Position numbers and translations under genes: made by a program
From: an uncultured Gammaproteobacteria bacterium
GTDB lineage: Bacteria > Patescibacteriota > Microgenomatia > Levybacterales > GWA1-39-11
Assembly (NCBI GenBank): GCA_964409875.1
Contig: CAYPEN010000006.1
Location: 1-52,280, forward strand
Length of the DNA stretch: 52,280 nt
Direction of reading: 5' to 3'
The notes under the pieces: generated by a model
Database searches by the model: none
What the model saw: the letters and a program-made list of their open reading frames with translations, nothing else
What the model was told of the DNA's origin: nothing
In this document: positions 20,045 to 48,976 of the stretch, in pieces
Numbering within the stretch: the first letter of the stretch is position 1
How the letters are laid out: every line of letters begins with the position of its first letter

Positions 20045-21009
20045 ACAGTAACCCCCACCACCACGCCAACCAACCCTTCCCCCTTGAAGGGTACGCGTGG
20101 GAACTTCGACCAGTCAGCCGCGTGGGCAGCGCCCAGCGCCAATAACAGGGGTGTTGCGTGGAACGCGCACTGGCCAAACTGCACCTCGAGGTCCGCCACC
20201 GTGGCCGAAACGGCACCGGCCAAGGTGCTGACGTCGGTGCCGGTTAGCAGCACAATGGGGTGCTTGGGGTCCGGACAGAACGGCTGCACCTGCTCCACCG
20301 CCTGCGCAACGCTGGGCGGGACCTTGGCGTACCTGGCACCGGCATGCAGCTCCTTGAGCAACTTGTCCATGTCTGGCCACGTGTCGGCAGGTACCAGCAC
20401 CGAGCGCAACCACACACCGTCCGGGAGCCAAATACCCACGGTGGTGTCAAGCAGCGCCATGGCCTGCGGCTCGGTGTCCAGGCGCAACAGCTCCTCCACC
20501 ATGTCGCACGGCAGCGCCGCCGTGGGCAGGGACACGGGGAGCGTGGCACGTACCACGATCACGTTGTTGCTGGCGTATGCGTACTTACCCTTGATCAATA
20601 TGCTGGTGCTCCACATGCGCTGCGCGTCGGTCCCCATGAACGGGCGCAGGGTGCGCAGCACGTGCAGCAGCCCCGGTGGGAGCTTGACCTTGTCCTTGGC
20701 CACCAGCGGCTCCAAGGGGAAGTCCTCGACCCTCCCCGCAGGGAGCGTGGCGCGGAACTTCCCCTGTCGCACCACCAGTGTCTGTTCCGCGTGCTCGAAG
20801 GTTGGCTCCTCCCCCTGACGCACGGCAGCCAGGAACTTGTCCAGTTCCACGGTAAAGGACAGCGCCTTGTCCACGGGGCACGGGGCACTGATATGCAATT
20901 GTCCGTTGAATGCGTGGAGCCGTTGCTTGTGCACGGCCACGTGGGTAAGCACCGGGACAAGGTCCTTGGTGCTGACAGCGCCTTTTACGATGTTGAGTGC
21001 GTTAAGCAT
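20041..21009 (-). CDS. DNA polymerase III beta-clamp-like protein
   Basis: 322 aa; MLNALNIVKGAVSTKDLVPVLTH...F-x-A-x-L...VEDFP, the N-terminal pattern of DnaN; directly upstream of polA. Confidence 0.65.
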   Translation of the reverse strand: MLNALNIVKGAVSTKDLVPVLTHVAVHKQRLHAFNGQLHISAPCPVDKALSFTVELDKFLAAVRQGEEPTFEHAEQTLVVRQGKFRATLPAGRVEDFPLEPLVAKDKVKLPPGLLHVLRTLRPFMGTDAQRMWSTSILIKGKYAYASNNVIVVRATLPVSLPTAALPCDMVEELLRLDTEPQAMALLDTTVGIWLPDGVWLRSVLVPADTWPDMDKLLKELHAGARYAKVPPSVAQAVEQVQPFCPDPKHPIVLLTGTDVSTLAGAVSATVADLEVQFGQCAFHATPLLLALGAAHAADWSKFPRVPFKGEGLVGVVVGVTV

Positions 21010-21905
21010 TAGGTGAGACTCAATTGGGAACCCACAAAGGTCTTGGCGGCAAATTGCTCCATGAGCTGGAAGGTGCGCGCGTTCACCACGTCACGGTAGG
21101 AGAAGTGGCTGGCGCACTGCTCGGCGGTCACCCCGGCTTCCGCAAGCCACGCATCCACCTGGATGCGCTGCACCGGGGTCAGCCGCTGGTAGTGCCATGA
21201 CTCCATGTCCTTGACCTTGGGGGAGTTGCTCGAGAACACCACCTTGCGCAAGCCCCTGGGTGTGATAAAGGCGCACGCACCAAACACCCCGGTCATGAGC
21301 CAACTCGTGCTGTCCACACTGAACCACGGGTAACGGAACATTAGCAATTGATCGGTGAGACCAAACCCATGGAGCTTGACGCGTGGCGTGCCGTCGCGCT
21401 TGGTCAGGAAGCGGGTCCACAGGTCATCCAGCCACCCGACTAGCCACTTGGTGGTCTCCGGAACCATGCCGCCGATAAAGATATAGTCGTGACCCTCATC
21501 CAGATACTTGACCAGCCACTTCGTATCCTCGCGTGCATGGAACACCGGCTGCACCTTGCAGCCAAGCTTGCGCAGCTCCGTGAAATACTCATAGGACTTC
21601 TCCGGGTCGCCAATGGCATCCAACGAACTGCACACCGTCCACACCGCCTTGGTCCGGTGCAGGAACTCCGCGTACCGCTCCACCGTGATGGTGGTCTTCT
21701 GGGTAAAGGCGGTGAACGCACCGCTGTCCAGGAACAGGTCCAGACCCATCTCTGCGCACTCCCGCGCGTCGCGCGACAGGGTGTTGCCGTCCAGGAACCC
21801 GTGGTAGTAGTAGGTGAACAGCCGCCGCTGCACGTTCTTAATCCACGCAGCCGCCTTGCCTTGGGACTCTACCGCATTGCGCTCCCCGGCCAGGTACACC
21901 TTCAT
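21009..21905 (-). CDS. dpdA: DpdA, TGT-fold DNA 7-deazaguanine transglycosylase
   Basis: ATG at 21905; LFLDSGAFTAF, SLDAIGD, PVFH, YIFIGG, KLHGFG, YPWFSVDSTSW; co-transcribed with que genes. Confidence 0.85.
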   Translation of the reverse strand: MKVYLAGERNAVESQGKAAAWIKNVQRRLFTYYYHGFLDGNTLSRDARECAEMGLDLFLDSGAFTAFTQKTTITVERYAEFLHRTKAVWTVCSSLDAIGDPEKSYEYFTELRKLGCKVQPVFHAREDTKWLVKYLDEGHDYIFIGGMVPETTKWLVGWLDDLWTRFLTKRDGTPRVKLHGFGLTDQLLMFRYPWFSVDSTSWLMTGVFGACAFITPRGLRKVVFSSNSPKVKDMESWHYQRLTPVQRIQVDAWLAEAGVTAEQCASHFSYRDVVNARTFQLMEQFAAKTFVGSQLSLT

Positions 21906-22336
21906 GGCAGCGAGTCCAGGACAATGGGGTGCATGCCATGGTGGCGCTTCATCCATTGCGCCTGGAAACCAAGGGACGGACGCGGCAGGTCGCCAAAGGC
22001 CCACTCAATCCCCGGCCAGTTTTCAAATGGCGCGAAGTACCGGCGGGGTGTCACAAACAGCAGGGAGTCCACCGTCTTGCGGTGCTTGTCTATCTGACCA
22101 AAGACCTTCTTTACCCACGCGTCGTCTGCGCGTGCGCCAATGGTCTGGTCATAGGGTGCAATCACCGCCTGCGGGGAGATGAGGCCATAGCGGGCGCTTA
22201 GGATAAACCACGGGTTCCCCGTGCTGACAGCAAATCGCTTGGCCATCTGAAACAGCTTCCCCGTGTACATGTGCTGCGCCTCGCACATGCTGCTCCGCTT
22301 GTCCTTGCCGCAGGAAATCACAACACCGGTGGTCAT
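21902..22336 (-). CDS. DUF6884-like protein with Cys motif, inside the deazaguanine operon
   Basis: VISCGKDK...A-x-x-MYTG-x-LF...[23 protein letters not shown]; ATGA-coupled to folE and dpdA. Confidence 0.7.
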
Positions 22337-23229
22337 CGCACCATCCTCAGAAACTCGGCGCGCGCTGCCGGGTCGTCCAGGAACGCACCTAGCAGACATG
22401 ACGTGGTGGTGCTGGACCCCTGCGCCCGCACACCACGGGACTCCATGCACAAGTGACGACACTCCAGCATCACGCCGACCCCGATGGGGTGCAGTGCGTT
22501 GGCCAGCGCATGCGCAATCTGCTTGGTCATGCGCTCCTGCACCTGCAAGCGCCGCGCGTACACGTTTACCAGCCTTGCAAACTTGGACAACCCCAGCACC
22601 TTGCCGTGCGGGATATACGCCACGTGCGCCACGCCAAAGAACGGTGCCAAGTGGTGCTCGCAGTGGGAGTACACCGGGATGTCTTTCACCAGCACCATCT
22701 CGTTGTACTCCTCCGCGCCGTCTTCAAAGCACTTGAGCAGGTCCGCGGGTTCCTGGCTGTAGCCTTCCGTGTATTGTCCCCACGCCTTAATGAACCTGCG
22801 CGGTGTGTCCACCAGCCCTTCCCGCTTGGGGTCCTCGCCGATGTACTGGAGGAGCCGGGTGGGGATGTCCTCGGCACTCCCGCCTGCGTTTCCCTCCCAC
22901 GGAAACACCAGCCAGTCGGCAGGGTTCTCCCACAGGGCGAAGAACGGCGTACTGGGGTAGCGCACCTTGTACCTGGCGCGCGTGGCTCCGCTGTCTATGA
23001 TGTCATCCACAAAGTAGTGCGCCTGACTGGGTGTGTCCACAACCTGTCCCTTTAGGATGAACTGCGACACCAAGTACGCGGCAGGAACGCCACCTCGAGG
23101 CACACCGTAGATATTAATGTGGTCGGACTCAAAATGCCCGGTGTCGGCCCAGTGGCGTTGGATCTGCCCAGCCACACGTCCCGCCGCAAACTGCACCTCG
23201 TTCTGGCGCAGAATGACCTTGTTCTTCAT
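22333..23229 (-). CDS. folE: Fusion of a type I phosphoribosyltransferase-like domain and GTP cyclohydrolase I
   Basis: N-part: [26 protein letters not shown]-part: [31 protein letters not shown]-x-[21 protein letters not shown]. Confidence 0.92.
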
Positions 23230-23885
23230 TGCATGTACTCCAGCGGGTCCTTGATACCGTTGGCGGCGAAGCCTTCCAGGCGCTCCTGACAGCTCCCGCA
23301 CACTCCGCACGCCTTGTCCAAGCCCTTGTAACAGGTCCAGGACTTGGCGTAGTCCAATCCCAGCGCCTTGCCGCGCGCAATAATCTCGACCTTGGTTTCG
23401 TTCAAGTATGGTGCACACACCTGCACCGGTTGCCAGTTGGCAATCTTGGCCACTTGGTTCATGAGGTCGATAAATTCAGGTCGGCAGTCGGGATAGATAG
23501 TGTGATCGCCTGCGTGCACACCGCACGCCACCCGATCCAGGTTGTTGGACACGGCGTAGGCTATGGCAACGGACAACATGATCATGTTCCGGTTAGGGAC
23601 CACGGTGAGCTTCATATTGTCTGCCGCATAGTGGCCCTCCGGGACCGGGGTGTCCCCGGTAAGGGCTGAGCGCGTCATGGCGATTCCCGCAATCGTGCGC
23701 ATATTCACCACGTGCGCGGGAACGCCCAGCTCGTGGCACACTCGCTTGGCGTACTCCAGCTCCTTGGCATGGCGCTGACCGTAGTCAAACAGCAGGCAGG
23801 AATGCAGGAATCCCGTTTCGTGCAGCTCGTTCACCAACGTGAACGAGTCCATGCCGCCGGAGTAAATTGCAACTGTGTCTTTCAT
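23226..23885 (-). CDS. queC: 7-cyano-7-deazaguanine synthase QueC
   Basis: SGGMDS, FDYGQRH-x-x-[20 protein letters not shown]...[10 protein letters not shown]; no glutamine amidotransferase fusion. Confidence 0.97.
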
Positions 23886-24595
23886 GGCAGTCCTATGATC
23901 TTGTGTTGTTGAAGGGAGAGTCTGTAGCCGTGGCGCATGCACAGGTCCACGCACCGCGCGATGGCGGCTTGCGTGGCGTCCTTGTCGGCTCCATGGTCCA
24001 TGGGTTGCAGCCACACCTTGTAGTGCATGGCCGGGTGGCCGGGTGGCCGCGCAAGCACCACCTTGCGTCCGTGCTCCTGCGTTGAGGACAGCGGCAGACC
24101 ATCCACGGGGTCAATCTGCGTGTCGGCACCCACCAGGTACTTCCAGCAGATGGCGTCATTCTCCACGATCGCATTCACGTGCGCGGTCTTGGGCGACACC
24201 ACAATCTGCGTCCCCAGCGGCAGTTCCTCCAAGGGCGCAAAGCTACCCGCCGTTTCGATCTGCACTTGCCGGTGGCCACGCTGCACAAGGCGGATGAATG
24301 GGGTCACATTCTGACGCAACGGTTCCCCGCCCGTGATCACCACCAGCGAATATTGCTTGATGGGGTATTGGAACACCTGCGCGGCAAGGGTTTCTATGTC
24401 CACAACTTTACGCTTGCTGGTAAAGTCCGTGTCACAGAAATAGCACTTGAGGTGGCACCCGGCCAAGCGCACAAAGACGGCAGGGACCCCGGCATGGGGT
24501 CCCTCCCCTTGGATGGTAGGGAACACCTCCACCACGTCCAGGGACAACCCATCGTGCCCTTTGAGCAGGGGTTCGGTTTCATTTTTACCGAACAT
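23882..24595 (-). CDS. queE: 7-carboxy-7-deazaguanine synthase QueE (radical SAM)
   Basis: EVFPTIQGEG-x-x-AGVPAVFVRLAGCHLKCYFCDT, TGGEPL, IETAG, VSPK, LQP, RLSLQQHK. Confidence 0.96.
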   Translation of the reverse strand: MFGKNETEPLLKGHDGLSLDVVEVFPTIQGEGPHAGVPAVFVRLAGCHLKCYFCDTDFTSKRKVVDIETLAAQVFQYPIKQYSLVVITGGEPLRQNVTPFIRLVQRGHRQVQIETAGSFAPLEELPLGTQIVVSPKTAHVNAIVENDAICWKYLVGADTQIDPVDGLPLSSTQEHGRKVVLARPPGHPAMHYKVWLQPMDHGADKDATQAAIARCVDLCMRHGYRLSLQQHKIIGLP

Positions 24596-24776
24596 GCTTA
24601 TCGTCCTCCAGTGCCGGGATGCGCAGGGGTGGTAGTTCGTTTGTATCGAACACCTCCTCCACCCACCGCTGGGTGCACTCTCGCAAAATGTCCACGTTGT
24701 CGGGAGACTGGTTAAGCGCCGCCTCCAAGTGCGCATCCGTATAGGCCCGGAATAGACGGCCACTGCTATCGCTCAT
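24585..24776 (-). CDS. Hypothetical protein within the que cluster
   Basis: 63 aa, ATGA-coupled to queD. Confidence 0.6.
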   Translation of the reverse strand: MSDSSGRLFRAYTDAHLEAALNQSPDNVDILRECTQRWVEEVFDTNELPPLRIPALEDDKHVR

Positions 24777-25210
24777 AAGACATGTGCTCCTTCGTAGTTC
24801 TCCGCTGTTGCACTACACTTGCGCGTCTCTTCGACAATCACTTCGACCAGATACACCTCCCGGGGAAGCACTTGGGGTCCCACCACCCGGAGCAGGTACT
24901 CTGCCATGTTCTCTGCCGTTGGGTTGAACGGCACCACGGCAATCCCTTGGGGATCTACCAACTTTAAGATGTTGAACCACGGGTCGTCCATGTACATCAG
25001 GAACCGGTGGTCCCAGTTAACCTCGAGCCACGAGCACAGACGGTCCTTGATGGCGGTAAAGTCCAGCACCCGGCCCACATCGTCCAGTTGCTTGGTGGTG
25101 ATGGTAAAGTGCACACGGTAGTTGTGGCCGTGCAGGTGTGCGCACTTGCTTTCGTGTCCAAACACACGGTGACCGGCGCTGAAGTCGTGGTACCTGGTTG
25201 CGGTGATCAT
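24773..25210 (-). CDS. queD: 6-carboxy-5,6,7,8-tetrahydropterin synthase QueD
   Basis: FSAGHR...C-x-x-LHGHNY, LDF, WDHRFL, PTAENMA, EET. Confidence 0.95.
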   Translation of the reverse strand: MITATRYHDFSAGHRVFGHESKCAHLHGHNYRVHFTITTKQLDDVGRVLDFTAIKDRLCSWLEVNWDHRFLMYMDDPWFNILKLVDPQGIAVVPFNPTAENMAEYLLRVVGPQVLPREVYLVEVIVEETRKCSATAENYEGAHVL

Positions 25211-30685: not shown

Positions 30686-30687
30686 GA

Positions 30688-35482: not shown

Positions 35483-35485
35483 CGC

Positions 35486-37858
35486 ATGGTTGTCCTCGCC
35501 AACAACCTCGTCACTCCGCAACCGCAGACCGAAGCGCAAGCTGCGGCGCAGGCGCAGGAAGCCGCGCGCCTTGCGATCGCCGAGGAGAAAGCGGAGGCTA
35601 CGGAGTACCAGCCGCAGCTCATCACCGCTTATCAAACCTCCTCCATGTACACACTGCGCGGCATCCCGCGCTACAACCCGGACAACCTGGTCGGGCGCAA
35701 GGGCCTGCGCGTGTACTCGGACATGATGAACGATGAGCAGGTGAAGGCGGTCATGAACTTTCGGCGCGACGCCGTGACCGCTCGCGCATGGACGCTGCGC
35801 TTCGAGGAAGGGTGCGACCTGCCCGAGGAAGAACAGGCTAACCGCGTTAGCCTCATGACCCGGCTCATCAACGAGATGGACGGGAGCTTCGTGGACGCGC
35901 TGAACGCGATCCTGCGCGCCATGATCTACGGTTACTCGGTTACGGAGAAAATCTACGACTACTGCGAGGTGGAGGGGCTAAACTACTACTACGTGGCGCA
36001 GGTGCAGGCCAAGCCCCTGGACACGTTCTGGTTCGAGTGCGACGCCTACGGGCGCATCACGAAGTTCTACCAGCTCCTCGGCGGCGTGAAGAACGAGCTG
36101 GACCTCGAAAAGTTCATCATCATGGTGCACAACCCCGAGGAGGACAACGTGTTTGGACGTTCGGAGCTGCGCGCGGCGTACCGCTCCTGGTACTCGAAGG
36201 ACGTGATCATCAAGTTCTGGAACCTGTGGATGGAGCGCATGGCGGGCGGGTTCCTTGCTGTGACGCGAGACCCTGCTGTGCAGACCGTGGTGCCAGGTAG
36301 CCCCGAGTACGCCGCGCTCCAGAAAGCCTTGTCCTCGATCACCACGACCACCAGCATGCTGCTCCCGGCTGGGTTCACGCCGCAGCTCATCACCCCTGGC
36401 AACACCGATCAATACGAAGCAGCACTCTCATGGCACGACAGGGCGATAGCGAAGAGCCAACTGGTCCCCAACCTCCTGGGTGTGTCGGACCAAGGTGCGC
36501 ACGGTGCGCTGGCCCAATCGACGACGCAACTGGAGGCGTTCGCCTGGACGCTGGCCAATATCTCCAGGCGTTTAGAAGACTGCGTGAACAGTCAGTTCCT
36601 GTACGAGCTGTGCGAGAAGAACTTTGGGGACGGCGAGTACCCGTCCTTTGCGTTCAGTGCCGTTACGGACGCGCAGCTCCAGTGGATCATCACGTCGTGG
36701 AAAGATCTAGTAGGCGCAAAGTCAATGCACGTCACGCCGAAGGACGAGGCGCATATTCGAAAGATCCTGGACTTCCCACCCATCACGGAAGAGGAGATAC
36801 AGGCAGCGGACGAGAAGGCCAAGGCGGACACCATCGAAATCGCACAAGCAAGCAGACCTGCCCCTGGTGCTTCACAGGGGAGTGCGTTTGGCCGCCGTGG
36901 TGCGCGTTCGACCGCTCATCCGCACGGAAAGCCGCGTACCGTTTCCTTGGATACGTTTACCCGCGCCGCCGCAAGGGTTGACTTCGCGGTAATTGACAAC
37001 TCGCTCAAGCGTATCGAGCGCGACCGCGTGAAGGACCTCGCAAAGGAGACGGCGCGCGCCCTGTCCCGACTCCTGACGGACGAGCGCCTCACTTTCATCC
37101 TGAAGGACGACATCACGCACATCGCGCATGTGGAGTTCGACGGCACCGACAAGGGACGCATCAAGCAGGTGTGCCGCGACGCGCTCCAGGCTGCGTGGTC
37201 CTTGGGCCGTGAAGAGGCGCAGCGCGAGATGGCCAAGGCGCGCAAGAAACCGTTCAAGCGCACGTTCGCCAACACGTTGTCGGATGCCATTAAGCTCCTC
37301 GACACAACCAGTTTTCGCATGGCGGGCGACCTCACCGACACTGCTCGACGCATCATCAGCACACAGCTCATCCAGGCGGTCAAGGGCAACAAGTCGGTCG
37401 GGGAAGCCCGCGATGCGATCATCGAGGCGTTCGTGAAGAAGGGCCTCACGGACGTCGACTCCATGGGCGACTACTTGGCCTCGGACCAGCGCGCGGTGCT
37501 GGAGGCATTGCAGGCCGAAGGGTACAAGGGGGATGACTCCTCCTACCTCGACACCATGATCAAGACCACGACCTTCGACGCCATGAACCAAGCGCGGTTG
37601 GACTCCTTCCGCGACCCGGACCTCGGGGACTTTGTTTCGGCCTTAGAGTACTCGGCGATCCTGGACGATCATACAACGGAGATATGTACCGAGCTCAATG
37701 GGAGCACTTGGCGCACAGACAATCCTCTGTGGGATATGTATACACCACCCAATCATTTTAACTGCCGATCAGTTGTAGTTCCGATTACAACGGTGGATGG
37801 GTGGGACGGCGAGGAAGATCCGGCCCCAAGTGTGCAGCCGCAGGAGGGCTTTAAGTGA
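35486..37858 (+). CDS. Portal protein (Mu gp29/DUF935-like) fused to a gpF-like head morphogenesis domain
   Basis: N-part GYSVTE...HNP...FG-x-S-x-LR-x-x-Y-x-x-W-x-x-K; C-part TT-x-x-DA-x-NQAR...Y-x-AILD-x-x-TT-x-x-C...PPNHFNCRS; one open frame of 790 aa. Confidence 0.88.
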   Translation: MVVLANNLVTPQPQTEAQAAAQAQEAARLAIAEEKAEATEYQPQLITAYQTSSMYTLRGIPRYNPDNLVGRKGLRVYSDMMNDEQVKAVMNFRRDAVTARAWTLRFEEGCDLPEEEQANRVSLMTRLINEMDGSFVDALNAILRAMIYGYSVTEKIYDYCEVEGLNYYYVAQVQAKPLDTFWFECDAYGRITKFYQLLGGVKNELDLEKFIIMVHNPEEDNVFGRSELRAAYRSWYSKDVIIKFWNLWMERMAGGFLAVTRDPAVQTVVPGSPEYAALQKALSSITTTTSMLLPAGFTPQLITPGNTDQYEAALSWHDRAIAKSQLVPNLLGVSDQGAHGALAQSTTQLEAFAWTLANISRRLEDCVNSQFLYELCEKNFGDGEYPSFAFSAVTDAQLQWIITSWKDLVGAKSMHVTPKDEAHIRKILDFPPITEEEIQAADEKAKADTIEIAQASRPAPGASQGSAFGRRGARSTAHPHGKPRTVSLDTFTRAAARVDFAVIDNSLKRIERDRVKDLAKETARALSRLLTDERLTFILKDDITHIAHVEFDGTDKGRIKQVCRDALQAAWSLGREEAQREMAKARKKPFKRTFANTLSDAIKLLDTTSFRMAGDLTDTARRIISTQLIQAVKGNKSVGEARDAIIEAFVKKGLTDVDSMGDYLASDQRAVLEALQAEGYKGDDSSYLDTMIKTTTFDAMNQARLDSFRDPDLGDFVSALEYSAILDDHTTEICTELNGSTWRTDNPLWDMYTPPNHFNCRSVVVPITTVDGWDGEEDPAPSVQPQEGFK

Positions 37859-38317: not shown

Positions 38318-38628
38318 TTGTGGCACGCATACTGGTGGACAATGTGCGCATGGCCGATGGCCAATTCGAGAAGTCCATCGCGCTGTGCGCGGCTGACGCG
38401 CTGCCCTTGTTCGGCGATGGTTGGCGCAATGACCATCATGTCAGCATGGCGGACGTGCTGCCTGTGTCCGGCGATGGGTGGCACAACCGCCTGGACGCGT
38501 GTTTCGTGGAGGAGATCGGCGTCATTACGCCCGACCAGTGGAACGCGCTCACGCATCTGGTGGCGGAGGACGAGGTGGAGCTTGAGAACAAACTTGCCGG
38601 GAGGCAGCAGACAACGTGGTTGAAATAA
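38314..38628 (+). CDS. Hypothetical protein with an internal 13-aa duplication
   Basis: ADALPLFGDGWRN / ADVLPVSGDGWHN; ATGA-coupled. Confidence 0.55.
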   Translation: MIVARILVDNVRMADGQFEKSIALCAADALPLFGDGWRNDHHVSMADVLPVSGDGWHNRLDACFVEEIGVITPDQWNALTHLVAEDEVELENKLAGRQQTTWLK

Positions 38629-39704
38629 AAGGCGCACACCTGTTCAGCGTCGGCACGTGGAACGACTTGACGTTCACGGAAGCCGACCTCGACCAGATCG
38701 TGCAATCGTTCAAAGACCTGAAGCTCTCGGGCCGCGTGCCGCTTAAGTTCGGGCACAACGACGAGCAGCCCATGACCGACGGCAAGCCCGCTATCGGCTG
38801 GGTGTCGCGCGTGTGGCGCGAGGGCAAGAAGCTGTTCGGCGACTTCAGCAACGTCCCGACCAAGGTGGCCGAGGCCATCAAGAACCAGCTGTACAAATTC
38901 GTTTCGATCGAGCTGTTACGCGATGCCGAGCGAGATGGGGTCACATACCCCTCAGTCCTCGACGCCGTAGCGCTCCTTGGCGCGGACCCTCCTGCGGTGC
39001 GCGATCTTGAATCTTTGAGCGCGCTAGCATGGTCACGCAAGGAAACCGGACTCCGGTTCTCTGCGCGACTCGCGTTCACGCAGGGAAACCCATCTTTCAA
39101 CAATTCAGGAGAATCCAAACCAATGGATAAAGAGGAAATCCAGCGAGCAATCGCGGAGGCACTCGCACCCATTCAGGCGCAGGCGACAGAACTTCAGCAG
39201 AAGTTCTCCGCCAGTGAAGATAAGGTTGCGAAGCTCACCGCCGAGAACGCTGCGCTGAAGAAGAGCGAAGAGGACCGCGCCAAGGCGGACCGTCAAGCGA
39301 AGATCGACGCCAACAAGGAGCGGTTCACCTCGATGACCGAGCGCGCCGTCAAGGCGGGCGAGATCACCCCGGCTGAACGCAACACGCTGCGCGAGAAATT
39401 CATGAAGGACGACGAAACCGTCCTCGCGATCGACTTCGCCATCGTCGAGATGCTCACGGGCAAGGCAGAGACCGACACGCGCAAGCGCAAGGTGGACGCC
39501 TTCTCACGCAGCAACGAGGACATGAACTCGGACGCTGACGAGGCCGCTGAATCCGCCAAGGTCAAGCTCGACGAGCACGTCGCGGGCATGATCACGCGCG
39601 GGGACAAGCGCGACAAGTTCACGCTGATGACCGAGGCCATGCGGTTGCACCCGCACCTGGCGCAGGCGGTCCACGGCACCTACCTGGCAGGAGATCGTGA
39701 GTAA
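38616..39704 (+). CDS. Prohead protease / scaffold (Mu gpI-like)
   Basis: GTWN...PLKFGH...A-x-GW...Y-x-x-VS-x-E...L-x-AVALLGA-x-PPAV; coiled-coil C-half. Confidence 0.85.
   Translation: MVEIKGAHLFSVGTWNDLTFTEADLDQIVQSFKDLKLSGRVPLKFGHNDEQPMTDGKPAIGWVSRVWREGKKLFGDFSNVPTKVAEAIKNQLYKFVSIELLRDAERDGVTYPSVLDAVALLGADPPAVRDLESLSALAWSRKETGLRFSARLAFTQGNPSFNNSGESKPMDKEEIQRAIAEALAPIQAQATELQQKFSASEDKVAKLTAENAALKKSEEDRAKADRQAKIDANKERFTSMTERAVKAGEITPAERNTLREKFMKDDETVLAIDFAIVEMLTGKAETDTRKRKVDAFSRSNEDMNSDADEAAESAKVKLDEHVAGMITRGDKRDKFTLMTEAMRLHPHLAQAVHGTYLAGDRE
39123..39704 (+). CDS. Putative internally initiated scaffolding protein
   Basis: In-frame ATG at 39123 preceded by AGGAG in a locally AT-rich patch, at the protease/coiled-coil boundary. 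Confidence 0.55.
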   Translation: MDKEEIQRAIAEALAPIQAQATELQQKFSASEDKVAKLTAENAALKKSEEDRAKADRQAKIDANKERFTSMTERAVKAGEITPAERNTLREKFMKDDETVLAIDFAIVEMLTGKAETDTRKRKVDAFSRSNEDMNSDADEAAESAKVKLDEHVAGMITRGDKRDKFTLMTEAMRLHPHLAQAVHGTYLAGDRE

Positions 39705-40087
39705 TGGCACTCGACGGACAGAACAGCAAGTGGCAGATCGTCGCGGCAGAAGACCTGCTGACGGGTGCCATGCACAAGGCGGTGGTGGTTGGCGGCACGC
39801 TCGCGCAGGCGGGCTCGGCCACCTACCCCATGCCTCCCTTCGGCATCTTGAAGTCCCAAGGCAAGAGCGGCGAGCAGGTCGCCGTGGCGGTCGAAGGATT
39901 CGTCAAGGCGTTCGTGGGTGGCGCGGTGAACACGCTCGGGTGGCCGCTCGTTGCGGCGAACTCCGGGTTCCTCGTCGCGGGCTCCTACGCCTCGGCGGGT
40001 TCCTCGCAGTACCCGGTCGTGGGACGCCTCGTGGGTCCCGGCGCTGCGGCGTCGGGTGATTTGGCAACCATCTTTTTGACGCCGTAA
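39704..40087 (+). CDS. Capsid decoration / cement protein (DUF2190-like)
   Basis: 127 aa Gly/Ala/Val-rich protein between protease and capsid; G-x-x-V-x-V-x-x-x-G pattern. Confidence 0.7.
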   Translation: MALDGQNSKWQIVAAEDLLTGAMHKAVVVGGTLAQAGSATYPMPPFGILKSQGKSGEQVAVAVEGFVKAFVGGAVNTLGWPLVAANSGFLVAGSYASAGSSQYPVVGRLVGPGAAASGDLATIFLTP

Positions 40088-40102
40088 GGAGGCGCGCAAA
40101 AC

Positions 40103-41071
40103 ATGAAAAGGCAAAAATTTGCGCAGTCTCAGGGCGTGCGCGACCTGCACCTGGCCACCTGGCTCAACCAGATGGCCATTGGCTACACGCCGCAGGGCAT
40201 CATCGCGGACCAGATCTTCCCGGTCATCCGCGTCGGCAAGCAGTCGGACATCTACCCGGTGTTCTCGCGTCAGGAAATGCTGACCATCGAGAACACGGAC
40301 CGTGCGCCCGGCACCGCCGCCAAGAAGATCACCCGGTCGGTCAGCTCCGGCACGTACTTCGCCAAGAACTACGCGCTGAAGACCGAGCTGACGGTGGAAG
40401 ATCGCGCCAACATGGACCCGGCGCTGGCGATGGAGTTGATCGGCGGGCGGGGACGCTACCTGCTCAACAAGCTGACCCTGGATTGGGACCGCCGCGTCTC
40501 GCTGCTGGTGAACAGCACGAGCAACGTCGGCAGCTCCGCCGTGGTCGGTTCCGCGTGGAGCGGTGCGGGTTCGCCCATCACCAACATGTGGACAGCGATC
40601 GACAACGTGCGGTATGCCACCGGCTACCGTCCGAACAAGGGCGTGCTCGGCACCAAGGCGTGGGACTCCCTGCGCCGCGACGTGACCGTGCGCAACCTCC
40701 TGTTCGGCACCAACAACGGCGGCGGCTATCCGTCGCTGGACCAGGTGAAGTCGATCTTCGAGCTGGATAGCGTGCTGATTGGCGCGTCGTTCTATTCCAG
40801 CACGAACGAGGCACAGGCTGAGTCGATCCAGGTGGTGTGGCCCGACAACGTGCTGATCTCCTACACCGCTCCCAACCCCACGCGCGATGACCCGTCCTTC
40901 GGTTATTCGTTCCGTTGGGCGGGAGAAGGTCTGTCGGAGTTCAACATTGAGGTCCACCCGTACGATCCCGTCATCAAGGCGGAAGAGATCGAGGCGGGCT
41001 ACTACCAGGACGAGAAGATCACCGGCAAGGAGTACAGCTTCCTGATCCGCGCCGTGAATAGCTCGCAGTAA
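40103..41071 (+). CDS. Major capsid protein
   Basis: 322 aa; IADQIFP-x-I-x-V-x-KQS-x-x-Y...RAPGT...P-x-x-x-V-x-G-x-x-x-W-x-x-L; position after the decoration gene. Confidence 0.88.
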   Translation: MKRQKFAQSQGVRDLHLATWLNQMAIGYTPQGIIADQIFPVIRVGKQSDIYPVFSRQEMLTIENTDRAPGTAAKKITRSVSSGTYFAKNYALKTELTVEDRANMDPALAMELIGGRGRYLLNKLTLDWDRRVSLLVNSTSNVGSSAVVGSAWSGAGSPITNMWTAIDNVRYATGYRPNKGVLGTKAWDSLRRDVTVRNLLFGTNNGGGYPSLDQVKSIFELDSVLIGASFYSSTNEAQAESIQVVWPDNVLISYTAPNPTRDDPSFGYSFRWAGEGLSEFNIEVHPYDPVIKAEEIEAGYYQDEKITGKEYSFLIRAVNSSQ

Positions 41072-41156
41072 GTTTCGCTTTCTCCGTGGGGCGAACGTCC
41101 TGGGCACGACGTAAAAAGGCCCACTTGTTCGATCAACACAGTTAAGGAGTATGACA

Positions 41157-41234: not shown

Positions 41235-41365
41235 GGAAGCCGGAGCCGGAGCGCAACGGCGAGCGCAAGCGCGACGCCGAGCGAACACGTGACCTGCGCG
41301 ACTGGCAGGCGGCGGTCAACAAGGGCTACCGCAACAAAGCCCTGCTGGAGAGGATGAAAAAATGA
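41228..41365 (+). CDS. 45-aa charged peptide (not in ORF track)
   Basis: MLRKPEPERNGERKRDAERTRDLRDWQAAVNKGYRNKALLERMKK*; overlaps both neighbours. Confidence 0.5.
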   Translation: MLRKPEPERNGERKRDAERTRDLRDWQAAVNKGYRNKALLERMKK

Positions 41366-41526
41366 TGCCCGATGACGAGACCCCAGCGGCGGAAGCCGCG
41401 CCCGAGGCTGCGGAAGTGCCTGCCGAGGAAAAGCCCACGCGCCTGGAGAGCGTGGACCAAGACAACACCACCAATCGTTACGGCGAGCGTGCGCCGAACG
41501 AACTGAAGCAACCGAAGGAGGAATGA
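41362..41526 (+). CDS. 54-aa acidic peptide (not in ORF track)
   Basis: GGAGAGG RBS; MMPDDETPAAEAAPEAAEVPAEEK...; ATGA-coupled. Confidence 0.55.
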   Translation: MMPDDETPAAEAAPEAAEVPAEEKPTRLESVDQDNTTNRYGERAPNELKQPKEE

Positions 41527-41789
41527 TGCTGCGCCCATGCAACACAGACGGGACCGTGAAGGACCCGAAGGATTACACGATCGGTGAGCGCGAGGCTGTC
41601 ATCATCGAGATCGAAAACGCCTCGCGCGGTCGCGCGGCGGGTCCCGAGGCCGTGGCCTTCGCACACCGTCTGCGAGACGACTACAAGGGCGAGGGCAAGG
41701 TCCTGGGTGGCCGCGACCTCGACATCAACACGCAGGCGGTCACCCCCTCCAAGGGCGCGGCGGACCTGCTCTCTTCACGCAAGAATTGA
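41523..41789 (+). CDS. Hypothetical protein
   Basis: 88 aa, AAGGAGG RBS, ATGA-coupled. Confidence 0.65.
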   Translation: MMLRPCNTDGTVKDPKDYTIGEREAVIIEIENASRGRAAGPEAVAFAHRLRDDYKGEGKVLGGRDLDINTQAVTPSKGAADLLSSRKN

Positions 41790-41803
41790 CAGGAGGCACG
41801 AAA

Positions 41804-44755
41804 GTGGATGTAACTCTGCACGCTCTGGGAATGCCGTTCAACGGCAAGACCATCTTTGAGAAGTCCCTCGGTGGGTCCGAGACGGCTGCGTATTACCTCG
41901 CGCGGGAACTCGCGCGACGCGGGCACAACGTGAAGGTGTTCACGACGCACCCCGAGGAAGGCACCTGGGATGGCGTCGAGTACATCAACTGCGGGGAACC
42001 CACTGAGGCGTGTCCGTTCGGGTCGAAGTTCCATTTCTTCGCCGCGAACACGCCTCAGGACGTCCTCATCGTGCAGCGCCAGCCCAAGGCGTTCCACTAC
42101 CAGTGGGCGAGCAAGGTCAACATCCTCCAGTGCCACGACCTCGGTCTATATCGGCAGTCGAACGACCTCGGCGAGTCGTTGTGGAATTTATCCGCGATCA
42201 CGGGCGTGAGCTCCTGGCACTGCGACCAGATGGCGAAGGTCTATCCCATCCCGCGCGACCGGTTCACCGTCATCCCCAATGGCGTGGACCTCGACATGTA
42301 CGATTCAATCCCGGCCACGGAGAAGTTCACCAATGACGGCACGCTGCGACTCCTCTACCAATCGCGCCCAGAGCGCGGACTTGAGCACTTGGTGCGTCCT
42401 GGTGGAATCATGGACCGGCTACGAGAGCAACCCATCCACCTGCACGTCTGCGCCTACGACTGCACCGTCCCGGAGATGGTGGGTTACTACGCGCAACTCG
42501 AAGCATGGGCGGAGCTGCTTCCGAATGTCTCCATGCTTGGGGCCTTGAGCAAGCCCGACCTCGCCGCCGTGCAAAAGGCCATGGACCTGCTCGTGTACCC
42601 GACGGAGTTCGAGGAGGTGTCCTGCATCACGGCGATGGAAGCGATGGCCGCGCACCTACCGATGATAACGTCCGAAGTGGCCGCGCTACCCGAGACGTGC
42701 GCGGACTCTGGCACGATCCTGATCCCGTTGAAGGACGGCAAGGCGGACGAGGACGCGTTCGTCGAGGAGCTGATCAAGCAGGCGGGGGATTACTCTCGCG
42801 CATTGCAGCGTGGAGCGCAGATGGATGCCGCGCGCGGCGTGTCTTGGGAAAAGGCCGGGTTCGACCTGGAGCTGCTTTGCAGCAGTCTCCTGAATAAGCG
42901 CAGCGGCTCTGCAATCGCAATGGCCAAGTCCGCAATTGAGTATTCGGACATTGACGTGGCGCGAGAAGCTTGCGATATGTTTTCAAAAGGCTCGGCTAAG
43001 AATTTGATGATATCGCAAAGGCTCGACGAAGAGCTGCACACCATGTACGCCTTCACCGAGTCGCAGGAAGCGTACAAGGCGCACTACGCCAAGCATCAAG
43101 GCGCGTACTACGATGGCCCCGGCGAGTCCGCGATCGGCGAGGACGTCACGAACACGCCGCGCTTTCGGGGCACCGTACTCTCCGCCTCACCCAAGATCAA
43201 GGCGTCGGGTGGCAAAGGCTTGCAGGTCCTGGACTACGGCTGCGCGCATGGTCACTACCTGGTGCCACTCGCAAAGGCGCTCCCGGACTCGAACCTGACG
43301 GGCGTGGACATCTCTGCGCGCGCTATCGGGGCCGCGACCCGCTGGGTGCAACAGGAGGGCCTCGGCAACGTCACGCTCGTGAACGCGGGACAGGAGTGGC
43401 TCGACGAGGACAAAAACCAAGGCAAGTTCGACCTCGTGCTCGCGTGCGAGGTCGTCGAACACGTCATCAACTACGAGGACCTGCTGAACCAGTTCCGCTC
43501 CGTGCTCAAGCCCGACGGCCTGCTCGTCATCACGACGCCTTACGGACGGTGGGAGTGGATCGGTCGGGAAGCCTGCAAGATGGGCCGCGAGCACCTGCGA
43601 CAGTTCGAGCGCGAGGACTTGGTGGAGCTGTTCAAGAACCACAAGGCCGACATCATCTGCGCACCTTCAGGCCAGGACCAAGGCGGCTTCGCTATTGGTT
43701 CTTGGATCACCGCCATTACCTTCAACGGCGATGAGCCACTCGGCAAGATCGACCTGCCGCGCAAGATGTCCCAGTACGCGACGCGCCAAACGGTGAGCGC
43801 GTGTTACATCGTGAAGAACGGCGAGAACATTTTGCGCAGGTCCCTAGACTCGATCGCCGACTACGTGGACGAGGTGCGGATCGGGGTCGATAAGACGACC
43901 AAGGACAACACCTGGCGCGTGATCGCGGAGTTCTGCGCCGCCAACCCGTGGCTCTCAGTGCATAGCCAGGAGATTGATTCCCCCACCGAGATCGGGTTCG
44001 ACGCCGCGCGCAACGCGGTGCACGACGGCGCGGAAGGGGACTGGATCTTCTGGCTGGACGCGGACGAGGAAGTGATCGGTGCACCACAGCTGCACAAGTA
44101 CCTGAAGCCCTCGCTCTGCGACGGGGTGCACTTCCCGCAGGTGCACTACTCGACGCAACCCGCCGCCGTGATCGCGACCGACCGCCCGTGCCGCCTGTAC
44201 CGCAACGGCATCGGTGCGCGCATCTACGGCCTGGTGCACGAGCACGTGGAGGTTGAGATCGGCAAGGCGGTTCCGAACGCTATCATGCGCGACGACATCC
44301 AGTTCTGCCACTCAGGCTACGTCACCGAGGAGGTGCGGCGCAAGCGGTTTCAGCGCAACATGCCGCTCTTGATCAAGGACCTGGAGAAGTACCCTGACCG
44401 CACGCTCAACAAGTTTCTTTACATGCGCGACGCTGCGCAAGGCATCGCGTTCAACCCGCGTGGCGGGTCGGTCGAGGTGCAGGACGCGCAGCGCGTGGTG
44501 GACATGTTCTCAGAGATGCTGGACCATCCAGGCCCCGTGTCGCGTATTCTGATCGACTCCCTGAATTACTACAGCCTTTGCGTCGAAGTCCTGGGAACGG
44601 GCTTCGAGGCCGAGATGCAGTTCAAAACCAAACGCCTACCGCTCGCGGGCGGGTCCTCTATCAAGGGCCGGTTCTACAATCGCGAGCATTTCCTGAAACT
44701 CAGCAACCGGCTTTTCAAGGAGGCCACTGACAAGTATGAAGACAAGTATTTTTGA
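41804..44755 (+). CDS. Tri-domain protein: GT-B (GT4-like) glycosyltransferase + class I SAM methyltransferase + GT-A (GT2-like) glycosyltransferase
   Basis: GTG after AGGAGG. GT4: GGSET...RGH-x-V, IPNGVD, S-x-P-x-RGL, E-x-SCITAMEAMA. MTase: VLDYGCAHG, GVDIS, FDLV...EV-x-EH, LKPDG-x-L-x-ITTP. GT2: YIVKNGE, WLDADE, G-x-VHE. Confidence 0.9.
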   Translation: MDVTLHALGMPFNGKTIFEKSLGGSETAAYYLARELARRGHNVKVFTTHPEEGTWDGVEYINCGEPTEACPFGSKFHFFAANTPQDVLIVQRQPKAFHYQWASKVNILQCHDLGLYRQSNDLGESLWNLSAITGVSSWHCDQMAKVYPIPRDRFTVIPNGVDLDMYDSIPATEKFTNDGTLRLLYQSRPERGLEHLVRPGGIMDRLREQPIHLHVCAYDCTVPEMVGYYAQLEAWAELLPNVSMLGALSKPDLAAVQKAMDLLVYPTEFEEVSCITAMEAMAAHLPMITSEVAALPETCADSGTILIPLKDGKADEDAFVEELIKQAGDYSRALQRGAQMDAARGVSWEKAGFDLELLCSSLLNKRSGSAIAMAKSAIEYSDIDVAREACDMFSKGSAKNLMISQRLDEELHTMYAFTESQEAYKAHYAKHQGAYYDGPGESAIGEDVTNTPRFRGTVLSASPKIKASGGKGLQVLDYGCAHGHYLVPLAKALPDSNLTGVDISARAIGAATRWVQQEGLGNVTLVNAGQEWLDEDKNQGKFDLVLACEVVEHVINYEDLLNQFRSVLKPDGLLVITTPYGRWEWIGREACKMGREHLRQFEREDLVELFKNHKADIICAPSGQDQGGFAIGSWITAITFNGDEPLGKIDLPRKMSQYATRQTVSACYIVKNGENILRRSLDSIADYVDEVRIGVDKTTKDNTWRVIAEFCAANPWLSVHSQEIDSPTEIGFDAARNAVHDGAEGDWIFWLDADEEVIGAPQLHKYLKPSLCDGVHFPQVHYSTQPAAVIATDRPCRLYRNGIGARIYGLVHEHVEVEIGKAVPNAIMRDDIQFCHSGYVTEEVRRKRFQRNMPLLIKDLEKYPDRTLNKFLYMRDAAQGIAFNPRGGSVEVQDAQRVVDMFSEMLDHPGPVSRILIDSLNYYSLCVEVLGTGFEAEMQFKTKRLPLAGGSSIKGRFYNREHFLKLSNRLFKEATDKYEDKYF

Positions 44756-45302
44756 ACGTCTGAAGATGGCAGGCCAAGTCGTCGCGGGCACCCTGCGCCC
44801 GGACGAGATGGTGGCCATCAAAGGCTACTGGGACGTCGAGCACCATGTGGCTCAGCCAGAAGGCGGATGGAAGGTGAAGCGGTGGACGCGCGAGAACGTG
44901 GTGACCGCTGCGGGCATGAACCGCATCGCCAACCGCGCGGTGAACATGACGGTGAACTCGTGGTTCAACTACCTGGTCATCGGCACGCAGACATCCGCGC
45001 CTGCCGACACGGACACGCAGGCGAACGTCGGCGAGGTGACGAACGGCCGCAAGATTGCCGCCGTCAACATCCAGTCTCGCGAATGGATCAGCCTGACGAG
45101 CACCTGGGCGGGGAACGCCGACGGCCTGACGGGCATCGCGCTCGACTCTGCCGCGATCTCCGACTATGTGAACAGTTCGGCGAGCACAGGCCTTATTGCC
45201 AACCGCGTGAACGGCATGGCGGTGACGCTGGCGGCGTCGGACTTCCTGAATCTCACGGTGCGCATCCGCGTGGGTTCCCACAACCAAGCTCACACGACCT
45301 GA
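44736..45302 (+). CDS. Putative virion structural protein (fibre/collar anchor-like)
   Basis: ENVVT-x-AG-x-N-x-IA...Y-x-x-IGT-x-T-x-AP-x-x-TDT...EV...R, a pattern common in phage virion proteins. Confidence 0.6.
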   Translation: MKTSIFERLKMAGQVVAGTLRPDEMVAIKGYWDVEHHVAQPEGGWKVKRWTRENVVTAAGMNRIANRAVNMTVNSWFNYLVIGTQTSAPADTDTQANVGEVTNGRKIAAVNIQSREWISLTSTWAGNADGLTGIALDSAAISDYVNSSASTGLIANRVNGMAVTLAASDFLNLTVRIRVGSHNQAHTT

Positions 45303-45313
45303 AGGAGGACAAA

Positions 45314-45502
45314 ATGGACCCGAGAGCACAAGCGAGCGAACACGCGGCGAAGTCAAAGGCCGCGTGGGACGCGGGCGATCACCACACGGCGTGGCTGGAG
45401 ATGAAGGCGGCGCAGGAACACATTGCCGACGGCAAGGTGGACCAGCAAGGCAACGGCACCCTGGTCGTAAATCGTCCGGGAGCCGCCCCGGAGGCGCTGT
45501 AA
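45314..45502 (+). CDS. Hypothetical protein (62 aa)
   Basis: AAGGAGG RBS plus ATG at 45314. Confidence 0.65.
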   Translation: MDPRAQASEHAAKSKAAWDAGDHHTAWLEMKAAQEHIADGKVDQQGNGTLVVNRPGAAPEAL

Positions 45503-46197
45503 TGTTCCGCATCACGAACATCCATCAGATCGAGATGACCTCGCACTGCAACTTGCGGTGCCGGTACTGCACGTCTCCCAATCTGAAGCGGCCCAAAGTC
45601 CACATGTCGGCGGAGCACTACGCTCTGGCGCTTAAGTGGGCGAGAATGTTCGTGCACGGCTACGGCCAGAGGTCATTGAACCTGGCCGGGATCGGCGAGT
45701 CCACCATGCACCCTGATTTCGTCCGCAACGTGCACCTCGCTCGCGAGGCAGTCGGACCTGGGTGCGAATTGGTGCTCGCGACCAATGGCGTAGCCGTAAC
45801 CGAGGAGATGATGCGGGGGATAGCCCCCGCTCGTCCCAAGGTGTTTGTTTCGATGCACAGGCCGGAGAAGGCGGGACCGGCCATAGAGCTGGCGAAGAAG
45901 CATGGGTTGTTCGCTGGAGCTTCTGCTGATCCGTCGCTCGCCGCCACCAACTGGGCAGGGCAGGTAAAGTGGCACGTGTCCGTGCCGCAGCGTCGTCCGT
46001 GCATGTGGGTGAAGGGCGGGATGGTCATGGTCATGGCGGATGGCCGTGTCACGAGGTGCTCTTATGATGCGTCGGGGGTGGGGGTCATTTGCAACGTCGA
46101 GGACGATCTACGCAATTTCACAACGACGCCTTATTCGCTTTGTGCTACGTGCGATCAGGACGTAGGGGTCGAGCTGCCAAAGGAGGCCGTGGCCTGA
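45502..46197 (+). CDS. Radical SAM protein with SPASM/twitch-like C-terminal Cys cluster
   Basis: IEMTSHCNLRCRYC (CxxxCxxC), GIGES-x-x-HP, TNG; C-term PC-x-W...ADG-x-V-x-x-C-x-x-D...C-x-x-C. Confidence 0.9.
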   Translation: MFRITNIHQIEMTSHCNLRCRYCTSPNLKRPKVHMSAEHYALALKWARMFVHGYGQRSLNLAGIGESTMHPDFVRNVHLAREAVGPGCELVLATNGVAVTEEMMRGIAPARPKVFVSMHRPEKAGPAIELAKKHGLFAGASADPSLAATNWAGQVKWHVSVPQRRPCMWVKGGMVMVMADGRVTRCSYDASGVGVICNVEDDLRNFTTTPYSLCATCDQDVGVELPKEAVA

Positions 46198-46198
46198 C

Positions 46199-47818: not shown

Positions 47819-47821
47819 CGC

Positions 47822-48976
47822 ATGGCCAACTACTCAGACGACTTCAACAGATCGAACGGTAGCATCGGCTCCGACTACACAGCGATGACCGGGTTATCGA
47901 TCCCGGTCGTGAACACCAACCAGGTGGCCGCTGGGTCTTCCGCGTCGTTCGCCGCGCGTGTGACCGTCGTCTCGTGGGGCGACAACCAGCGATCCAACAT
48001 ACGCATGAAGGCGTGCTCGACGAGTTGCGGCATCATGGCGGGCGTGCGCTTCCAGTCGACCGCCATGAACGGCTACGCCTTGCAGTTCTCAGGGGCCATT
48101 GGCGCGAGCCAAGCTTGGAGGCTCAAGCGCATCACTGCGAACGCAGAAACACTCTTGGCTTCCGGCACCGCCTCGACGGCAGCGAACGACATCATCTCGG
48201 TCAGCGCCGTCGGTACCGTGATCACGGGGTACTTGAACGGCGCGATCCTTGCGCAGGTGGTCGACACAACCTACCCCACGGGCGGTGCGCCCGGGATGTA
48301 CCTGTTCGGCAGCTCGGCCGTGGGCACCCTCGCGGCGGATGACTTCTCTGCGACCGACGAGGGGTTTGCCTCGGACGACTTCAACCGCCCGGACGACACC
48401 TCGCTTGGCGCGAACTACACCGTGCAGTTCGGCCTGAACGACATGAAGATCGTGTCGGCCAAGGCGATCCCGACCAACTACTCGAACGACTGCGGCGCGC
48501 TGTGGGACACCTCGCTCTTCGCGAACGACCAAGCGGGCGAGATCATCGTCGGGACCTTGGGTAGCCCCGGCGTCGTGGGCGCGGGTGTCGGCGTGCTGCT
48601 GCGCGGGAGCTTCGGCCTGGAGACGTTCTATCGCGCCTACGCGAGCCTCGCCTCCAACAGTGTGAAGATTGCGCGACGCCTTGCAGGTACGGGCAGCTCC
48701 TTGGCGACCCTCACGGGCGCCGGTATCGCCTCAGGGGACATCTTCCGGTTCGACGCCACCGGCACCACGCTCACCGTCTATAAGAACGGCACGCAGATAC
48801 TCCAGACCACGGACTCGAACATCGCGGGCGGCCAGGTGGGCGTGACCTATTCCTCGACCGACTCCGCTGGCACGGACTCGATCGCGGCGTTCAACGCCTA
48901 CGGTGCGCAGCCGATCCCGGGTGCGCTGTACCCCGACTGGGCCAGCTCCATTGCGCGCGTGGTGCGCAACCTATGA
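47822..48976 (+). CDS. Tandem beta-sandwich (lectin/ConA-like) virion protein
   Basis: Two homologous ~180-aa halves, each starting SDDFNR-x-x...G-x-x-Y and ending with G-x-x-I-x-x-Y-x-NG...D...G-x-x-G. Confidence 0.6.
   Translation: MANYSDDFNRSNGSIGSDYTAMTGLSIPVVNTNQVAAGSSASFAARVTVVSWGDNQRSNIRMKACSTSCGIMAGVRFQSTAMNGYALQFSGAIGASQAWRLKRITANAETLLASGTASTAANDIISVSAVGTVITGYLNGAILAQVVDTTYPTGGAPGMYLFGSSAVGTLAADDFSATDEGFASDDFNRPDDTSLGANYTVQFGLNDMKIVSAKAIPTNYSNDCGALWDTSLFANDQAGEIIVGTLGSPGVVGAGVGVLLRGSFGLETFYRAYASLASNSVKIARRLAGTGSSLATLTGAGIASGDIFRFDATGTTLTVYKNGTQILQTTDSNIAGGQVGVTYSSTDSAGTDSIAAFNAYGAQPIPGALYPDWASSIARVVRNL

Follow-up and report, generated by a model that had tools for sequence, protein, structure and literature searches.

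The DNA analyzed here is a 52,280-nt stretch of contig CAYPEN010000006.1 (GenBank assembly GCA_964409875.1, positions 1 to 52,280; "the window" below means this whole stretch), and it encodes on its forward strand, at 45502..46197, a 231-aa radical S-adenosylmethionine (SAM) enzyme of the twitch type, recognized by Pfam family PF04055, its homologues, an AlphaFold2 model and a fold match to BtrN. We refer to this gene and its product as rSAM. The window, about 52 kb long, is the circularly permuted, essentially complete genome of an uncultured tailed phage, since an IMG/VR contig of 94-98% identity spans window positions 33769-52280 and then, about 360 nt on, continues from the window end into positions 1-2116; the same phage is recurrent across metagenomes from wastewater, river and activated sludge. 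From position 33746, the forward strand carries, in this order, the terminase, a Mu-type portal with a MuF domain (35486..37858; PF06074, E 1e-42), a head maturation protease/scaffold (38616..39704; phrog_976, E 1.2e-31), a probable cement or decoration protein (39704..40087; called from a weak match to PF09956, Phage_cement_2, at E 0.011 and from its place between the protease and capsid genes), the major capsid protein (40103..41071; phrog_1005, E 1.3e-52), a 989-aa fusion of a GT4 glycosyltransferase (GT), a class I methyltransferase (MT) and a GT2 glycosyltransferase (41786..44755; Pfam domains), a 188-aa fibre-like protein (44736..45302; phrog_4176 'tail fiber protein', E 1.6e-8), a 62-aa open reading frame (ORF; 45314..45502) and rSAM. 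Several large virion proteins follow downstream, including a virion structural protein at 47822..48976 (+; PHROG match), and then tail genes that run across the window ends; the reverse strand holds the replication genes plus a 7-deazaguanine cluster. The enzyme does lie among virion genes, as a first-pass annotation made from the sequence had proposed, and the placement of rSAM two genes after the GT fusion was nearly right, with the 188-aa gene and the 62-aa ORF lying in between.

Homologues begin at the residue encoded by the ATG at 45502, GGAGG stands 8 nt upstream, and the start overlaps the stop of the 62-aa ORF (TAATG), all of which argues that this ATG is the true start. The Pfam Radical_SAM model PF04055 matches residues 10-119 with 42.2 bits (cut-off 29.5; E 1.2e-10). 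In an alignment of 51 sequences with a mean column identity of 51%, exactly seven cysteines are invariant: three form the radical SAM [4Fe-4S] motif C16-N-L-R-C20-R-Y-C23 (45547..45570) and four, C167, C186, C214 and C217, lie in the C-terminal domain, while the remaining cysteines of the window protein, C88 and C197, vary among the homologues. The G63-I-G-E-S67 sequence at the end of strand 2 (45688..45702), a 'GGE'-type SAM-binding motif, is invariant at all five positions and aligns to the GE motif of BtrN, CteB and 7wzv; in the signature loop after strand 5, N150-W-A-G-Q154 (45949..45963), residues W151, A152, G153 and Q154 are invariant as well, and this loop is a candidate substrate-binding element. 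Both NWAGQ and an RPK motif after the cluster loop are specific to the window rSAM family, unlike BtrN. The twitch (half-SPASM) auxiliary-cluster domain (46000..46152) has the pattern C167-x13-G181-x4-C186 ... C214-x2-C217, with G181 invariant alongside the four cysteines. This pattern is the first half of the SPASM signature, and there is room for one auxiliary cluster only because the chain stops 14 residues past C217. The window protein gives no match to PF13186 at E<=0.1; more distant family members match positions 1-39..49 of that model, and their cysteines line up one to one with those of the window family (hhalign E 3e-28). The combination of a CxxxCxxC motif with C-terminal auxiliary cysteines, on which the first-pass annotation was built, is confirmed and lies far beyond chance. 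As a separate observation, one family member of 630 aa (P0125) carries a LAGLIDADG intein exactly at the third Cys of CxxxCxxC (…RCAY|C…HN|CTSP…), and splicing would restore the family motif.

The alignment-based AlphaFold2 model of rSAM (predicted local distance difference test, pLDDT, 91.8; predicted template modeling score, pTM, 0.89) has five strands alternating with four helices, i.e., an abridged beta5/alpha4 core, followed by a hairpin and a short helix (strands 174-177 and 182-184, helix 212-216) that form the auxiliary domain and carry the four auxiliary cysteines. All top fold matches of the model are radical SAM enzymes, and the best in the PDB is BtrN with SAM and substrate (E 1.4e-11; template modeling, TM, score 0.70/0.66 by query/target), aligned over 206 columns with a root-mean-square deviation (rmsd) of 3.3 Å and 19% identity. 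ChlB, anSME, CteB and SkfB rank after BtrN, aligning at a much higher rmsd and over just part of these larger proteins; the match to viperins (TM 0.45-0.49) and HydE is limited to the core, and a fold search of BFVD gave no viral structural relative closer than BtrN. Like rSAM, BtrN, the 2-deoxy-scyllo-inosamine dehydrogenase of the butirosin pathway (PDB 4m7t/4m7s), has a single C-terminal auxiliary cluster with its cysteines in the order C...C...CxxC (reportedly at 169/187/232/235 in the 2013 structure paper), shares the abridged beta5/alpha4 core and is of similar size (about 250 vs. 231 aa). The Cx13Gx4C...CxxC pattern with its four auxiliary cysteines only and the fold match together bear out the earlier twitch/BtrN call: rSAM is, as modeled, a compact twitch-type radical SAM enzyme with one auxiliary cluster and a BtrN-like architecture. 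Sequence profiles match in the N-terminal half only (CteB at 1e-7, ChlB at 1e-6, 7wzv and BtrN at 1.4e-4, the BtrN match being restricted to residues 6-118), and the C-terminal 92 residues, searched by themselves against PDB sequences, gave chance matches only. The best single-sequence PDB match is 7wzv (E 0.0011), which was deposited as a '4Fe-4S cluster-binding domain-containing protein' and which may be SpeY.

To judge from these sequence comparisons, rSAM belongs to no characterized family. Every one of the NCBIfam matches (tungsten-cofactor maturase, viperin, MoaA and PqqE) is partial and misses its cut-off by a wide margin. For MoaA, the score is 29.2 bits against a cut-off of 284, and the four auxiliary cysteines have another spacing than the three-Cys GTP-binding cluster of MoaA; for QueE, there is only a match to phrog_2076 at E 0.0034, and a separate, genuine QueE is encoded at 23882-24763 (-) in the 7-deazaguanine cluster, so that the two are distinct, as had been noted at first pass. 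An orthologue of BtrN was rejected as well, given the 19% identity, the N-terminal profile match only, and a location among phage head genes, unlike BtrN, which is encoded in a 2-deoxystreptamine aminoglycoside cluster. The enzymes anSMEcpe, CteB, ChlB and SkfB resemble rSAM in the N-terminal core and over the first half of the auxiliary domain, and anSME is a radical dehydrogenase; however, the first three (not SkfB) have a 7-8 Cys SPASM motif and two auxiliary clusters, which the window rSAM lacks. Accordingly, a SPASM-type maturase of ribosomally synthesized and post-translationally modified peptides (RiPPs) was rejected, based on the four auxiliary cysteines only, no RiPP recognition element (RRE) or other leader-binding domain within the 231 aa, and no conserved small ORF on the flanks; RiPP maturases have RRE domains and adjacent precursors, and neither is seen at the window rSAM. 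As regards RaSEA, the radical SAM enzyme that partners ArcS in making archaeosine, no ArcS-type domain was found among the window ORFs scanned.

The matches to viperins would fit a different role, namely that rSAM makes a diffusible small molecule (e.g., a viperin-like nucleotide analogue or a cofactor-type compound) for host takeover or counter-defense. The NCBIfam viperin model is matched at 46.5 bits and the PADLOC pVip model at E 1.8e-12, MoaA is matched in part, and viperins are among the fold matches. However, the viperin score compares with a cut-off of 180 and covers residues 12-110 only, and the pVip match covers profile positions 5-99 of 257; that is, the matches are to the generic radical SAM core of the first ~110 residues and fall far below the family cut-offs. 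Moreover, viperins have no auxiliary cluster, their TM scores are well below the 0.70 of BtrN, and the conserved late-operon and GT context described below would be left unexplained. We thus rejected viperin/pVip as an assignment and regard a small-molecule role as very improbable.

The rSAM family is phage-specific. A collection of 5.8 billion proteins contained 925 relatives at E<=1e-3, and the best 120 of these 925 are 220-280 aa long and 56-99% identical, many of them on 40-64 kb contigs; in an exhaustive library of 50%-identity clusters, 103 passed E<1e-30 and 614 passed E<1e-10. A tblastn search of rSAM against 50,697 cultured-phage records (INPHARED) gave no match, and among 185,579 species genomes there were six matching contigs, all from metagenome-assembled genomes (MAGs). 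No gene of the module is better conserved than rSAM: across 35 loci its median identity is 56%, whereas the capsid protein reaches 45%, the GT domains 42-46% and the portal 36%.

Genomic context was assessed in 79 IMG/VR loci around relatives, onto which the window proteins were mapped (flanks of up to 10 kb; best 80 loci per list). The gene is inside the head module in about 68 of the 79 non-redundant loci, at several positions: between portal and protease in 31 loci, including deep branches, after the capsid gene, the GT fusion and the 188-aa gene, i.e., in the window arrangement, in 23, and directly upstream of the GT fusion in 11-14. The few other positions include two replication modules, where rSAM is flanked by an exonuclease and Pol III alpha (L030) or by a primase-helicase and PolA (L055). 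Of 75 family loci, 52 show GT4/MT/GT2 domains in the stretch retrieved, a median of 1.2 kb from rSAM. Of the 23 loci without a visible GT, 21 are cut short on the side where the fusion would be, and the remaining two are L030 and L055. The fusion was located elsewhere on the same contig for L055 (with L130) and for L043 (with L110), leaving L030 as the sole replication-module locus without a located fusion, and no genome among the loci examined was shown, where the flanks suffice, to have rSAM without GT genes.

The rSAM tree includes several relocations that end adjacent to a GT gene. In addition, in a divergent lineage (L051, L052, L082 and L083) with a capsid identity of 24-35%, the domains of the fusion are split and reordered into separate GT2-TPR (tetratricopeptide repeat) and MT-GT4 genes, and rSAM is immediately downstream of these. 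The linkage to GT genes, whose absence among homologues was to refute the first-pass proposal of a glycan-tailoring role, is observed both in the 52 loci and in the split lineage, and the proposal is not refuted on this count. A member of the latter and one of the six MAG contigs, L083, is a 484-kb Solirubrobacterales MAG contig (CAWERC010000007.1) that carries the GT2-TPR / MT-GT4 / rSAM trio together with a distant capsid gene; this locus is presumably a prophage, and an actinobacterial host is possible for its lineage. An apparent GT4-rSAM fusion protein (P0182) was rejected as evidence of linkage, the MT-GT4 gene of its contig being broken over four frames (L244, an ENA contig, 4773-6300), through either gene decay or an error of long-read assembly.

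The best PDB relatives of the GT2 domain of the neighboring fusion are GmaR (E 2.7e-26) and SunS (~2e-19), its GT4 domain matches MshA/PimA-type enzymes, and the matches of its MT domain are class I enzymes of a generic kind, among them a sugar O-methyltransferase. GmaR is the flagellin O-GlcNAc transferase of Listeria, and SunS and ThuS are glycocin S-glycosyltransferases; the fusion shares the GT2 relationship with both types, and the GT2 gene of the split lineage bears TPR repeats, a layout shared with SunS-type peptide glycosyltransferases. Unlike GmaR or SunS, the window GT2 is fused to a GT4 and an MT and is encoded after the capsid gene. With 434 matches in IMG/VR, the fusion belongs to the core gene set and directly follows the capsid gene in at least 80 loci; tblastn against INPHARED found no full fusion in cultured phages, with partial single-domain matches only. 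The GmaR/SunS-like GT2, the SunS-like TPR layout and the fixed place after the capsid gene point to glycosylation of a virion protein by the predicted transferase, and the 188-aa fibre-like protein, whose gene is 3' of the GT fusion or of the capsid gene in most relatives (synteny), is a possible target. A similar role has reportedly been proposed for mycobacteriophages by Freeman et al. (2023; cited in PMC12801897), with phage glycosyltransferases and an accompanying methyltransferase as the probable source of sugars on proteins of the capsid or tail; no radical SAM enzyme is known from those systems.

Given this context, the hypothesis we favor, although we would put its chances at about even, is that rSAM, in an accessory role, may act as a radical dehydrogenase or epimerase on a sugar of the GT-fusion pathway. 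Under this hypothesis, the N-terminal [4Fe-4S] cluster (C16/C20/C23) would cleave SAM reductively to a 5'-deoxyadenosyl radical, which would abstract hydrogen from a sugar carbon that bears a hydroxyl group. At this point, the sugar could already be on the virion protein, placed there by the GmaR/SunS-like GT2 and the GT4 domains, or could still be part of a nucleotide-sugar donor; R30 and K32, which are invariant and directly follow the cluster loop, might bind a diphosphate. The fully Cys-ligated auxiliary cluster (C167/C186/C214/C217) would then accept an electron, resulting in a keto-sugar by BtrN-type dehydrogenation, or, alternatively, the hydrogen might be returned to the opposite face, i.e., epimerization. 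Either way, the outcome would be an unusual sugar on a capsid or head-fibre glycan. Abstraction of hydrogen from a sugar carbinol carbon is the chemistry of other small twitch enzymes, such as the epimerase HygY, the dehydrogenase SpeY, and NeoN. Epimerization appears the less likely of the two reactions since the epimerases among these enzymes use an extra conserved Cys as hydrogen donor, whereas the seven cluster ligands are the only invariant cysteines of the window clade. Consistent with a sugar substrate, rSAM has no peptide-related features, that is, no RRE, no N-terminal extension and no conserved flanking small ORF.

Alternatively, rSAM might act directly on a virion protein (the capsid, cement, 188-aa, portal or scaffold protein), independently of any glycan, for example by anSME-like oxidation of a Ser or Cys side chain, by cross-linking, or by epimerizing a residue. 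The location inside the head module in most loci, often in the portal-protease gap or as the next gene 3' of the capsid gene, would be expected under this alternative, and the next fold matches after BtrN are anSME, ChlB, CteB and SkfB, with CteB and ChlB as the top profile matches. Nonetheless, rSAM has a single auxiliary cluster whereas anSME, CteB and ChlB are SPASM enzymes with more cysteines, the 231 aa leave out any RRE or peptide-binding extension, and no conserved precursor-like ORF adjoins the gene. The obvious candidate for the latter, the 62-aa ORF, has an AGGAGGA ribosome-binding site, contains no Cys and has no match in a Pfam scan; when the small ORFs within 900 nt of rSAM were clustered across 96 loci, only fragments of known neighbors and off-frame ORFs emerged. 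We thus rejected the 62-aa ORF as a general precursor peptide or partner, and, to judge from this comparison, it is probably neither. The copies of L030 and L055 in replication modules, and the sister clade described below, which lies beside a GT in a DNA-modification cluster away from any head genes, also argue against direct action on a virion protein, and we consider this alternative unlikely.

Returning to the sugar-tailoring hypothesis, it is important to note that several observations weigh against it. The sequence similarity to BtrN is limited to the N-terminal half, with 19% identity, and CteB and ChlB score higher there. L030 and L055 carry rSAM in replication modules, and in the 31 loci with rSAM between portal and protease the GT gene is 3-8 kb away. 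Further, at least 13 fusion-bearing loci that are covered from portal to tail tube have no rSAM, so the GT pathway does not need rSAM: the lineage has the fusion as a core gene and rSAM as an accessory one. One broad phage lineage with the fusion in its core head module accounts for most GT-linked loci; hence, the linkage to the head module and the linkage to the GT gene are confounded, and the co-occurrence is partly phylogenetic inertia. Finally, virion glycosylation in this phage lineage is a prediction, and whereas the domain identity, cluster motifs, fold, family distribution and gene linkage of rSAM are observed, its substrate, reaction type and virion target are inferred.

The role of rSAM also has to be weighed against a possible involvement in DNA modification, because the phage encodes, on the reverse strand, a full QueD-QueE-QueC-FolE-DUF6884-DpdA 7-deazaguanine DNA-modification cluster (21009..25210; Pfam and PHROG matches), and the first-pass annotation had named base maturation with the DUF6884-like protein as a less likely option. 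Under this alternative, rSAM would partner the que/DpdA/DUF6884 proteins in 7-deazaguanine or other nucleotide/base chemistry, and its location among head genes would carry no meaning. The option did not hold up well for the window gene: rSAM and the que cluster are on opposite strands with about 21 kb between them, que genes are near rSAM in none of the ~75 window-clade loci, including the two replication-module loci, and a contig with que genes plus the GT fusion (L163 = L126) has no rSAM in its covered head module. In a comparison of 80 loci per list with 10-kb flanks, which falls short of genome-wide co-occurrence, the best 80 QueC loci share one contig with the GT loci but no contig with the rSAM loci, and a pattern search for DpdA found nothing. 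A sister clade of rSAM gives a different picture, however. Its members are ~245 aa long and align to the window family over their full length (hhalign E 3e-28 at a probability of 99.8%), and all cysteines, the NWAG loop and a DGRxxxC motif are in register, although the identity is only about 23-24%, and they lie between DpdL and DpdA in clusters without QueC. The option thus retains some probability for the family as a whole, given the location of the sister clade inside DpdL/DpdA clusters, while for the window gene itself we consider it quite improbable.

The cassette of the sister clade, found in low-GC phages (L071 9607-13189; L239/L240 5891-11472; L242/L243), consists of QueD, QueE, FolE, a QueD paralogue, rSAM, a ~160-aa protein of no assigned function, a GT-B glycosyltransferase and DpdA, with no head genes nearby. 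The QueD paralogue directly before rSAM carries LxxxHRHxF, the motif that defines DpdL (PMC10516641). The cassette resembles the DpdL-type 7-deazaguanine (dDG) clusters of phages in that paper in having DpdL and DpdA but no QueC, whereas the window has QueC and its rSAM is outside the que cluster; the trio of rSAM, 160-aa protein and GT is not mentioned in PMC10516641. The gene composition suggests that the cassette encodes an undescribed further modification of 7-deazaguanine DNA. The only context common to both rSAM clades is a neighboring glycosyltransferase. It is tempting to speculate, although we consider it rather doubtful, that the two clades represent a phage-specific radical sugar-tailoring family that always works with a GT-B enzyme, on a virion-protein glycan here and on a 7-deazaguanine-derived DNA modification in the sister clade.

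As for the window cluster itself, it represents a complete preQ0 pathway, and its FolE has a ~180-aa N-terminal extension. The DUF6884 protein matches PF21818 at E 1.5e-25, and the DpdA is divergent, being recognized by PHROG 887 only and not by Pfam.

We know of no radical chemistry linked to phage virion glycosylation, nor of a description of a radical SAM enzyme coupled to a phage protein-glycosyltransferase, and a full-text literature search on phage virion glycosylation and radical SAM found nothing relevant. Glycosylation of phage virions is newly recognized and influences the immune recognition of therapeutic phages. If the speculation on the two clades is correct, rSAM would provide the first radical SAM step in the glycosylation of a viral particle, and the sister clade would hint at a glycosylated deazapurine of phage DNA that has not been described so far. 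Should rSAM form a keto-sugar or epimerize on a protein-linked glycan, it would offer a new enzymatic route to unusual viral surface sugars and a minimal, 231-aa twitch enzyme for mechanistic and biocatalytic work, and by way of the sister clade it would suggest a hypermodification of 7-deazaguanine DNA not yet described.

A few additional observations concern the remainder of the window. In two wastewater RNA runs, of which ~1% each was read, there were no reads on 39500-48500. Between rSAM and the tail genes (46199-51584) are four large ORFs of 539, 384, 608 and 261 aa that were found only in one relative (L001), at 96% identity; one of them has a PHROG 'virion structural protein' match and one a faint match to the pectate-lyase-like DUF5123, and the 539-aa ORF, which begins 2 nt past the rSAM stop, has no relatives detected in Pfam or PHROGs. 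On the reverse strand, homologues of gp34 and gp33 of cyanophage Pam3 (29843-31422; PF23977 at E 4e-59 and PF23984 at E 2e-22) adjoin an AEP-type primase that is related to the primase domain of the TOTE conflict system.

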